A stretch of DNA of 64,000 bases from Planctomycetota bacterium (GTDB lineage: Bacteria > Planctomycetota > MHYJ01 > WSZJ01), in NCBI GenBank assembly GCA_038060895.1, contig JBBTCT010000001.1, positions 192,001-256,000 of the forward strand. Reading direction: 5' to 3'. Of the stretch, positions 5,983 through 14,128 are shown in pieces; position 1 is the stretch's first letter; each line of letters starts with the position of its first letter. The notes beneath the pieces are model-generated. The model ran no database searches. It was given only the letters and a program-made list of their open reading frames with translations, and was not told where the DNA came from. A program made the position numbers and the translations under genes.

Positions 5983-6987
5983 ATGAGCAGGGTGTTTCTG
6001 GCCGCCGGAATCGCACTCGCCCTCTGCCGCGCCGCTTCGGCCGGCGGCATCGAGTGGATCGACAACGATTACGACAAGGCCGTCGCGAAGGCGAAGGAGG
6101 CCGGCAAACTCGTCCTCGTGCACTGGCGCAAGGACGGCTGCCACTGGTGCACCGATCTCCAGGAGAAGACGCTCGCGACCGACGATGTCGCGAAGTTTCT
6201 CGGCGAGACCTGCGTCAGCGTGCGAATGGACCGCGCGAAATACGGCCAGCTCGCGGAGAAATTCCACGTCGATGCCACCCCCGACACCCAGTTCCACTCC
6301 AGCGACGGGCGCGTCGTCAAACGCATCGTCGGATTCCTCCCGGCGGAGCAGTTCCTGGCGGAAGCGCAATCGGCGCCGGAAGCGTGGAAGCGGATTCAGG
6401 AACTCGAGGCCGCCATCGCCAAAGACGACAAGGACGCCGCTTCGAAGCTCGACCTGGGCCGTCTCCTGGCCGCGGCCGGTGATCTCGACGCGGCGGACAG
6501 GCACCTGCGCGCCGCCGCGGGCCTGGACACGGACAACGCGAAGGGGCTGGCGCTGGAAGCCTGGTGGACTATGGCGGACTCACGGATGCGCGAGCCGCGT
6601 CCGGACGTAGGTCTGGCCAAGGAAGCGCTCGCGAAAGTGCAGGAGCTGGACCCGAAGAACGAAAAGGGACGGATGGACAATGCGGCGGTGCAGCTCGCGC
6701 GCATCGAGCTCAATGCGGCGCCGAAGCTTGCAAAGGCCTCGCTGGAGAAAATCATGGCGGACTACCCCGGCACCGACGGGGCGGCAGAAGCGATGTTCGT
6801 CCTCGCGGCCGATGTCCTCGTCGATATCGACCGCAACTTCGACGCCGGGGAAGCTATGCTGAAGAAGCTCGCGGCGGAGATGCCTGAGGATCCGTGGGCG
6901 AAGCGCGTCCCGGCCGCCCTGGAACAACTCGCCGTCATCCGCAAGGAATCCACGAAGGACATCAAGAAAGAGGGAGAAGAAAAATGA
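5983..6987 (+). CDS. Exported thioredoxin-fold (CHWC) + TPR protein
   Basis: Signal peptide, IEW..DYDKAVAKAKEAGKLVLVHW..DGCHWC, downstream cis-Pro-like ATP, TPR-like helices. Confidence 0.88.
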   Translation: MSRVFLAAGIALALCRAASAGGIEWIDNDYDKAVAKAKEAGKLVLVHWRKDGCHWCTDLQEKTLATDDVAKFLGETCVSVRMDRAKYGQLAEKFHVDATPDTQFHSSDGRVVKRIVGFLPAEQFLAEAQSAPEAWKRIQELEAAIAKDDKDAASKLDLGRLLAAAGDLDAADRHLRAAAGLDTDNAKGLALEAWWTMADSRMREPRPDVGLAKEALAKVQELDPKNEKGRMDNAAVQLARIELNAAPKLAKASLEKIMADYPGTDGAAEAMFVLAADVLVDIDRNFDAGEAMLKKLAAEMPEDPWAKRVPAALEQLAVIRKESTKDIKKEGEEK

Positions 6988-7919
6988 AGCGCCTCCAACT
7001 CGCCGCCGCTTTCCTTGCCGCCGCCGCGATCGCGCGAGCCGACGGCGTGGACTGGGTGACCGACTACTCCAAGGGCCTTGAGAAGGCGAAGGAGTCCGGG
7101 AAACTCGTACAGGTGCACTTCACGGCCGACTGGTGAAACGCCTGCAAAGTCATGGATACGGATACGTATTCCAACGCCGACATCGCGAAGTACCTGAACG
7201 AGACTTTCGTCAACATCCGGATCGACACCGACAAAGACCCGGACACCGCGAAGAAGTTCAAGGTCCGCGCCATCCCGGACACCCGCTTCCTCGACTCCGG
7301 CGGGAAAGAGCTTCTGCGGATCATCGGACATCGCGCGGAGTTCTTCGACCAGGTGAAGTCCCTGGGTGAAATCGCGGCGGTTGAGTTATCGGTGAAAAAC
7401 AACCCGAAGAACGTCCCGACGCTGATCGCCGCTTCCATCGTTTACCTGAAGCTGGGCCGCATTGATGAAGCCGGCGCGCTGCTGGAAACGGCGATCGACA
7501 ACGACCGGGACAACGCGAGCGGAAAGCGCGAAGAGCTTTTTTACCGCCTCGGCCTCGTGAACATGAAGGCCGGGAACGATGCGAAGGCGGAGGCGGCGTG
7601 GGCGGAGGTCGGGAAAATGGACCCTGAGAACAAGAAGGGGTACATCGACGACCTGCAGTTCGACCGGTGCCTGAAGCAGACGGACGAGGAGGACTACCAC
7701 GGGGCGGAGCGTTCGCTGGGCGACTTTCTGAAGCGGTATCCGGACAGCGAGCACGTGCCGGAAGCCCGCTACCTGCTCGGCATGTCGCAGTTCTTCATGG
7801 AGAAGCGGGAAGACGCGGTTTCGACATGGAAGGACCTGATCCGCGAGAAGCCTGACACGGACGCGGCGAAGAAAGCGGAGAAGGGTCTGAAGTTCGCGGA
7901 GAAGAAAACGAAGAAGTAG
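6984..7919 (+). CDS. Probable selenoprotein: exported thioredoxin-fold (UNAC) + TPR protein, UGA at 7134-7136
   Basis: Track ORFs 6894..7136 and 7152..7919 are in one frame separated only by TGA: HFTADW-U-NACKVM; ATGA-coupled to the Cys paralog; hairpin at 7154-7172. Confidence 0.85.
7154..7172 (+). promoter_or_regulatory. Candidate bacterial SECIS element
   Basis: GGATACG-GATA-CGTA(T)TCC hairpin starting 17 nt after the in-frame UGA; G-initiated apical loop. Confidence 0.7.
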
Positions 7920-13748: not shown

Positions 13749-14128
13749 CGGGCACCTGTCTTCGAAGAGGGTTTCCGGCGCCGTCCCGCGGCCGTGGCGA
13801 CAGGACTCGCCTTGGCCGGAATCGCGGGGAGGGTGCCGGTTGCGTATCGGTCGTCATTGTGGACCAGGCGAACGGAAGACGGGAGACCGGAGTCGGGAGA
13901 CGGGAGTTGCGTCGTTTGCGCTGAAACCTCCGGAACGACCGAAAGCGGTGAATGCGGCGCCCTATCCGCGGCCGTTTCCGCGTCATTCGCTTTCATCCGC
14001 GTATTCCTTTCTCTTTTCTCGAATCCGCGAGTCGAACGCAGCCCGGAATCGAGAAAGGACATACGCGGATAAAGGCGAATGACGCGGAAACGGCCGCGGA
14101 TACGTCGAGGCGAAGCGATCGCGTTCAC
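13745..14128 (-). CDS. Possible low-complexity coupling ORF containing a palindromic insert
   Basis: GTG overlaps the aroH stop (GTGA) and its TGA overlaps the aroF ATG (ATGA); no recognisable domain. Confidence 0.3.
   Translation of the reverse strand: MNAIASPRRIRGRFRVIRLYPRMSFLDSGLRSTRGFEKRERNTRMKANDAETAADRAPHSPLSVVPEVSAQTTQLPSPDSGLPSSVRLVHNDDRYATGTLPAIPAKASPVATAAGRRRKPSSKTGAR
13872..13906. repeat. Degenerate heptamer tandem repeat (ACGGGAG-like x5)
   Basis: acggaag acgggag accggag tcgggag acgggag. Confidence 0.65.
13963..14102. mobile_element. TA-bounded palindromic MITE/REPIN-like element, copy 1
   Basis: About 42-bp inverted arms TATCCGCGGCCGTTTCCGCG...CGCGGAAACGGCCGCGGATA; related copy at 42565-42682. 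Confidence 0.65.

Follow-up and report, generated by a model that had tools for sequence, protein, structure and literature searches.

The locus considered here raises the question of how two genes interrupted by an in-frame UGA codon might be decoded into full-length proteins, and of whether the small RNA hairpin that follows each of these codons takes part in the process. The window that we analysed, i.e. a stretch of 64,000 nucleotides from a Planctomycetota bacterium (assembly GCA_038060895.1, contig JBBTCT010000001.1, positions 192,001 to 256,000), encodes on its forward strand an exported protein of 311 amino acids that joins a thioredoxin-like domain (Thioredoxin_7/DsbH-like) to TPR repeats (gene 1; 6984-7919), and on its reverse strand an exported Thioredoxin_7 protein of 307 amino acids (gene 2; 12587-11664). 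The in-frame TGA specifies residue 51 of gene 1 (7134-7136, forward strand), within the motif W-U-N-A-C, and residue 73 of gene 2 (12371-12369, reverse strand), within U-G-P-C, where U denotes selenocysteine (Sec). An original prediction, made from the bare sequence, had noticed a compact hairpin resembling a Sec insertion sequence (SECIS) at the same distance from both codons and had taken it for a lineage-specific recoding element. Our analyses lead to the conclusion, to which we assign a probability of about 0.9, that both hairpins are canonical bacterial SECIS elements embedded in the reading frames of two exported selenoproteins with a thioredoxin fold.

Translation with TGA read as U turns gene 1 into a single open frame (MKRLQLAAAF...HFTADW-U-NAC...) that starts with an apparent signal peptide, as judged by eye, and whose residues 19-117, U51 included, are covered by the Pfam families PF03190, PF13899 and PF00085, TPR families making up the C-terminal half. 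The PF13899 (Thioredoxin_7) match, which scores 48.6 bits for a cut-off of 27, extends across the redox motif. Gene 2 contains likewise one in-frame TGA (...FTRSYAP-U-GPC...), and PF13899 covers its residues 44-130, U73 included, with 41.9 bits against the same cut-off; its helical C-terminal half has no Pfam match. Both UGAs are therefore found inside the Thioredoxin_7 domain, where each of them opens a UxxC redox motif. Full-length orthologs of gene 1 with one TGA are present in 5 of 7 genomes of the same genus. Orthologs, at 49-84% identity, keep one TGA and the frame downstream of it. Directly 5' of gene 1, with an ATGA overlap, lies a paralog (5983-6987, forward strand) which carries the motif C-H-W-C, the relevant Cys codon being 6139-6141; it matches the Thioredoxin_2, DsbH and Thioredoxin_7 families of Pfam and its domain spans the Cys position.

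The hairpin of gene 1, GGAUACG-GAUA-CGUAUUCC (7154-7172, forward strand), is 19 nt long and separated from the UGA by a spacer of 17 nt (7137-7153); it consists of a 7-bp stem, which can also be drawn as 3+4 bp with a bulged U, closed by the loop GAUA that begins 24 nt past the UGA. Folded alone it reaches -7.5 kcal/mol (z -3.3), a value equalled by 1 of 200 shuffled sequences. Its counterpart in gene 2, GGAGGGCG-GUA-CGCUCUCC (12351-12333, reverse strand), is also 19 nt long and 17 nt away from the TGA, with an 8-bp stem and the loop GUA starting 25 nt past the UGA, and folds at -11.8 kcal/mol (z -4.2; 0/200 shuffles as good). Coordinates, sequences and the common 17-nt offset are thus as originally described. 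The Cys paralog had been put forward as a negative control and is a valid one, the corresponding segment (6159-6177) lacking the hairpin (-2.0 kcal/mol, z +0.4). The 60-nt stretches after the two UGAs are of ordinary stability (z -0.37 and -0.09), only the compact hairpin standing out in them, and a long fdhF-like SECIS was dropped as a candidate because neither of these 60-nt folds was significant.

The evidence that carries our conclusion comes from homologous sites. Both proteins were used as queries against 61 genomes (60 relatives plus the one that contains the window), and at the places listed the codon corresponding to U was determined with local blastp, the choice of sites being made on protein homology alone; the relatives named in a search for related loci are Planctomycetota metagenome-assembled genomes. 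Each site was then scored for its best hairpin at a spacer of 12-19 nt, with a threshold of -6.5 kcal/mol. The gene-1 family comprises 102 distinct sites, namely 49 TGA, 42 Cys (TGC/TGT) and 11 other codons, the Cys codons specifying the first Cys of a CxxC motif in the same column as the TGA. The hairpin was present in 43/49 TGA sites as opposed to 1/42 Cys and 0/11 other sites, with medians of the best hairpin of -9.6 (TGA) versus -1.8 (Cys) kcal/mol. In the gene-2 family, made up of 30 TGA and 2 Cys codons (32 sites), it was found in 29/30 and 1/2, respectively. Pooling both families gives 72/79 TGA versus 2/44 Cys sites, a contrast that bears out the proposal of a recoding element. The Fisher tests (5e-13 and, for the pooled data, 5e-23) overstate the significance, the relatives not being independent of each other. 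The gene-1 and gene-2 families contain 39 and 20 distinct hairpin strings, respectively; the loop starts at nt 27-29 (the U of UGA being nt 1) in 45/48 and 29/30 hairpins, and a G is found at loop position 1 or 2 in 47/48 and 29/30.

The same association is visible at orthologous positions within a single genus. In two genomes (G005 and G007) the gene 1 ortholog has TGC in place of TGA, together with degraded hairpins (-3.1 and 0.0). Conversely, the paralog upstream of gene 1 has TGC and no hairpin (best -3.3) in G000-G004, whereas its ortholog in G006, and only there, has a TGA followed by a bulged hairpin of -10.5 kcal/mol (L026:666-711). Within this genus, the Sec form of the paralog in G006 thereby marks a recent change between Sec and Cys.

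Selection acting on the RNA was assessed by recoding codons +5 to +13 synonymously according to host codon usage, 300 times per site. The native sequences of the TGA sites fold clearly better than their recoded versions (median z -2.27; 46/79 matched by no more than 5% of the recodings) and those of the Cys sites do not (median z -0.04; 1/44). A stricter, position-locked definition of the motif, with the loop starting at nt 28/29, a loop of 3-4 nt with G first and at least 6 consecutive pairs, was retained in 6.3% of the recodings compared with 64.6% of the real TGA sites; among the homologs it occurs in 51/79 TGA, 1/44 Cys and 0/11 other sites. For gene 1 itself, the native stability is attained by 15/300 of the recoded versions. 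The hairpins are therefore coupled to UGA and not to Cys across homologs, and they are under selection at the RNA level. In the gene-2 family the peptide shifts along with the stem, E-G-G-A-L accompanying, for instance, GAGGGC-GGC-GCCCUC and E-S-G-T-L-S accompanying GGAGAGCG-GUA-CGCUCUCC. RNA and protein sequence co-vary in this manner because the hairpin is formed by codons +6 to +12, counted from Sec.

How often such structures arise by chance depends on the host genome, which is rich in GC (66% GC, 5.42 Mb in 47 contigs, 86.5% complete). Among the controls, 15% (579 true-stop TGAs), 21% (600 Cys codons, taken as a sample) and 23% (253 CxxC sites) are followed in the same region by a hairpin of -6.5 kcal/mol or better, so that the stability of the gene 1 hairpin is by itself unremarkable; the level of gene 2 is matched by about 2% of these controls. 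Hairpin energy alone thus discriminates poorly in this genome. The position-locked motif is far rarer: it follows 5/579 true-stop TGAs, 21/5197 Cys codons, 1/253 CxxC sites and 585/121098 TGA triplets, in sum about 0.5% of the stop TGAs or Cys codons of this genome. Nonetheless, this motif was derived from the two window hairpins themselves, and independent support is therefore provided by the homolog contrast.

We also built covariance models, a check that had been suggested originally, from relatives, leaving out the window genome and its close orthologs, and searched with them the 64-kb window plus 41 loci of the same genome. The model R1 (17 relatives, 3-nt-loop form) matched gene 2 (12371-12326) with 43.9 bits (E 5.6e-14) and gene 1 with 25.3 bits, the next match in the window being at 12.2; R2 (13 relatives, 4-nt-loop form) matched gene 1 (7134-7179) with 40.5 bits (E 1.3e-13) and gene 2 with 16.4 bits, followed by a window match at 9.1. 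The two UGA sites are the top matches of both models in the window, and the Cys paralog gave no match to R1 or R2 at E<=10. Both models matched UGA sites of other thioredoxin-fold Sec genes in the genome and not those of unrelated selenoprotein families. With Rfam, nothing in the window attained the gathering score, and neither hairpin was matched at E<=10.

As summarized in the review PMC13188914 (section 5 and Fig 2 legend), the general model of bacterial SECIS (bSECIS) elements, which is that of bSECISearch, comprises an apical loop of 3-9 nt on an upper stem of 4-16 bp, at least one G at loop position 1 or 2, in most cases as G[G|U], a distance of 16-37 nt from the UGA to the loop and a minimum free energy of -7.5 kcal/mol or lower; according to the same review, a subset of bSECIS elements lies outside the model. 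Like these elements, both window hairpins are located in the coding region just past an in-frame UGA. With loops of 4 and 3 nt, stems of 7 and 8 bp and spacings of 24 and 25 nt (gene 1 and gene 2, respectively) they fall within the limits for loop, stem and spacing, and G is the first loop nucleotide in both, in the form of GU in gene 2 and of GA in gene 1. The energy of gene 2 (-11.8 to -13.7 kcal/mol) is below the published threshold; that of gene 1 is -6.7, -7.5 or -8.4 kcal/mol depending on the sequence context. Neither hairpin has an extended lower stem.

Several results weigh against our interpretation. The closed 18-nt helix of gene 1 (-6.7 kcal/mol) falls short of the published -7.5 threshold when the constraints are enumerated; a dangling base on the 3' side is needed to attain that value, while a context of 30 nt gives -8.4. 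The usual G[G|U] dinucleotide is missing from its loop GAUA, which would begin with GG only if the G-C pair that closes it were opened. The bSECIS constraints are permissive as well, since they pass 24/28 of the supported Sec sites of this genome together with 43/150 true-stop TGAs and 48/150 Cys codons; given that about 30% of ordinary stop or Cys codons pass at 66% GC, the homolog contrast and not the hairpin alone should carry the call. In gene 2, the native fold is equalled by 60/300 synonymous recodings, which indicates that this hairpin is largely set by the peptide E-G-G-T-L-S. The models R1 and R2 contain the UGA-x-x-UGC codons and are therefore partly detectors of the protein family. 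Finally, covariation in orthologs had been named as a check; RNAalifold on an ungapped codon-register alignment of 77 TGA sites yielded no consensus pairs, hence no consensus structure and no formal column-wise covariation statistic. The failure is attributable to the register of the stem, which slides by 0.5-1 nt between subfamilies (three registers plus a bulged form).

Taken at face value, some of these numbers would suit the explanation that the hairpins are functionless by-products of a conserved peptide in GC-rich DNA, the UGAs being either real stops of truncated genes or pseudogenes, or codons read through without any aid. The 15-23% of control sites with a hairpin of -6.5 kcal/mol or better, the gene 2 recodings equal to the native sequence and the lack of significance of the 60-nt folds all point in that direction. 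Such by-products should, however, accompany the Cys homologs too, which encode a similar peptide and have the hairpin at 2/44 sites against 72/79 for TGA, and the synonymous-recoding signal is found at TGA sites only. Moreover, the Thioredoxin_7 domain runs across the UGA and the orthologs preserve both the TGA and the frame beyond it, as described above. We therefore give this explanation a very slim chance and retain canonical SECIS elements as the reading of both hairpins.

The original prediction went further in proposing that the hairpin is specific to the lineage. A compact, position-locked hairpin could in fact represent a distinct recoding signal, either recognised in a way unlike an ordinary SECIS or independent of SelB. 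Its small size (18-19 nt, loops of 3-4 nt), the loop position fixed at nt 27-29, the gene 1 loop devoid of G[G|U], the absence of any Rfam match at E<=10 and the subset of bSECIS elements that, in PMC13188914, is placed outside the model could be invoked in its favour. On the other hand, both hairpins are inside the geometric limits of the general bacterial model as given in that review, and other Sec genes of this genome, in which one SelB is encoded, have hairpins with G in the loop at spacings of 16-36 nt, including a 17-nt hairpin with an AGGUC loop. The same protein family with its hairpin was found across several families of the class, so that the hairpin follows the protein family and not the lineage. 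As for the shared offset, described as exact, it holds true for the two genes; as a property of a recoding element it does not stand, being owed to the coding register of Thioredoxin_7: it looks exact within the family because the hairpin overlaps the conserved M/L-E/D-x-G/D-T-x-S codons, and this overlap also explains the fixed loop position. A separate signal is thus very improbable, and the window hairpins are one positional variant of the general SECIS of the organism rather than an element apart.

A less radical possibility, which we regard as unlikely though worth stating, is that in this Planctomycetota-related clade Sec genes of the Thioredoxin_7 type rely on a SECIS that is minimal and locked in position. 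Such a hairpin would span 18-19 nt, have no lower stem and carry at nt 27-29 a tri- or tetraloop that starts with G; it would tolerate loops without G[G|U] and helices weaker than the accepted threshold. If so, loop recognition by SelB would be relaxed or different, the peptide following the redox motif would be shaped by the RNA, and the clade would possess a compact and portable SECIS.

A SECIS demands a matching decoding machinery, and this genome encodes it. A tRNA-Sec gene with a G discriminator is found at C4:13533-13624 (71.7 bits against RF01852); selB (C1:134888-136777) is above the curated cut-off and its product contains the EF-Tu GTPase, domain 2, beta-barrel, SelB-wing_2 and SelB-wing_3 domains, i.e. 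both winged-helix domains; selA (C4:24942-26297, on the contig of the tRNA-Sec) and selD are likewise above their cut-offs, selD having an in-frame TGA of its own. TGA has not been globally reassigned, as it is still the commonest stop codon (1188 among 2698 crude genes). This set of genes supports Sec as the inserted residue, an identity that had been favoured from the start and that we now hold with high confidence; binding of SelB to the hairpins and actual Sec insertion are inferred. Next to the tRNA-Sec gene, at a distance of about 214 nt, there is a small Thioredoxin_7 selenoprotein gene (C4:12873-13319).

The inserted residue might alternatively be Cys, delivered by a tRNA(Sec)-like tRNA(Cys) and a SelB-like factor recruited by the hairpin. 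Systems of this kind (selC*/SelB*/CysRS*) are known in some anaerobes, as reported in PMC7609411, and ARAGORN called a second tRNA-SeC(UCA) at C1:472898-472990. This second call is likely a false positive, with mismatches in the acceptor stem and a C discriminator, and was rejected as a tRNA(Cys)UCA or allo-tRNA since it lies antisense in an open reading frame of 552 codons with a coding-type GC content at third codon positions (GC3); the RF01852 search, in which 150 of 935 candidates were scored, listed 9 matches at E<=0.001, and this call is absent from them. There is one selB over the cut-off in the genome, the next match scoring 171 bits for a cut-off of 242, and selA, a Sec-containing selD and a bona fide tRNA-Sec are all present. 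No selC*/SelB*-like system, as defined by the features given in PMC7609411, was found in the genome, where a Cys-recoding gene could be missing because it is 86.5% complete. With no second selB over the cut-off and no credible second tRNA(UCA) found, the Cys alternative raised initially has scarcely any probability, and Sec remains the residue that we assign to both codons.

With Sec insertion directed by the two hairpins, it can be envisaged, on the model of the well-established SelB pathway, that SelB-GTP charged with Sec-tRNA(Sec) would use its C-terminal winged-helix domain to bind the hairpin at the apical loop and the upper stem. Once the UGA enters the A site, the hairpin would be placed just outside the mRNA entry channel, with the loop 24-25 nt downstream, and the tethered SelB would deliver Sec-tRNA(Sec), competing with release factor 2. 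In the protein, Sec would presumably serve as the attacking residue of the UxxC redox motif.

The SECIS of E. coli fdhF, a hairpin bound by SelB, reportedly consists of a minimal upper stem-loop of 17 nt located 11 nt after the UGA, with GU in the loop and a bulged U. Compared with this description, the window hairpins likewise follow an in-frame UGA and have G (and U) in the loop, and the gene 1 hairpin can be drawn with a bulged U on its 3' arm; they differ in the spacer, 17 instead of 11 nt, in a loop lying some 5-6 nt further downstream and in the loop sequences. The FG-GAP/ASPIC genes of the host, with a 17-nt hairpin at spacer 10, come closer to it. PMC10778597 provides no numbers for the E. 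coli minimal SECIS.

With regard to protein families, neither protein attains the cut-off of any curated NCBIfam family. Both share with NF041199 (Trx7/PDZ domain-containing (seleno)protein) the Thioredoxin_7 fold and a Sec placed first in the redox motif, scoring, however, only 32 and 25 bits for a cut-off of 300; instead of the PDZ domain, gene 1 has TPR repeats and gene 2 the helical C-terminal half that Pfam leaves unassigned. Gene 1 also resembles the thioredoxin-TPR proteins of the YbbN/CnoX type in having an N-terminal thioredoxin domain followed by TPR (PF14561 TPR_20, 25.4 bits for a cut-off of 25); the TPR_20 match is the sole link to this type that was tested, and gene 1 departs from it by its apparent signal peptide and the UxxC motif.

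The two genes belong to a genome rich in selenoproteins. Scanning for frames with coding-type GC3 listed 100 in-frame TGA candidates, and for at least 28 in-frame UGA sites support comes either from a Pfam domain that spans U or from paralogs. The domains concerned include Thioredoxin_7, AhpC/Redoxin, a deiodinase-like protein, a BNR/sortilin pair and seven FG-GAP proteins, six of them with ASPIC/UnbV. The hairpins of these other Sec genes display loops like GGU, GUC, AGGU(C), AGUU and GUUC. Literature searches combining Planctomycetota, selenoprotein and selenocysteine retrieved, judging by titles, no paper on a selenoproteome, and Planctomycetes are not mentioned in the review PMC13188914.

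Some of these genes deserve comment on their own. Five FG-GAP/ASPIC-UnbV paralogs (L153-L157; contigs C36 and C24) have U in the context APDY-U-THFWRQV and share, 10 nt past the UGA, the 17-nt hairpin GGCGGC-AGGUC-GCCGCC or a near variant of it, which we take to resemble the minimal SECIS of E. coli fdhF. Two alpha-2-macroglobulin genes, L159 (C12:4995-5957) and L160 (C21:64817-65779), contain a TGA in G-U-F-E-Q with PF07678 (TED domain) across the site; this position is presumably that of the thioester Cys, and the two genes may encode a selenoester variant. A search for selenoprotein, macroglobulin and thioester together brought up nothing relevant, again judging by titles. The Thioredoxin_7 gene with U-K-T-C, listed as L148 (C34:94454-95416) and L124, has no hairpin at the usual place (0.0), and the bSECIS constraints reject it together with the deiodinase-like gene and one macroglobulin gene. 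Elsewhere in the window, positions 13965-14100 form an almost perfect palindrome whose arms measure about 50 nt (-97.9 kcal/mol, z -13.6) and which was flagged by a sub-threshold Rfam match to a miRNA precursor. Its arm belongs to a dispersed repeat, for which blastn gives 93 matches across the genome, many of them in inverted pairs.

The two genes of this window are new members of the thioredoxin-like group of selenoproteins, and they change nothing in what is known of Sec decoding. Their recognition has nevertheless practical and biological consequences. Standard gene callers truncate or split both genes at the UGA, and recognition of the SECIS restores two full-length exported UxxC oxidoreductases. 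Furthermore, the switches between Sec and Cys at orthologous sites, which go together with the loss or gain of the hairpin, constitute a natural experiment within one genus.

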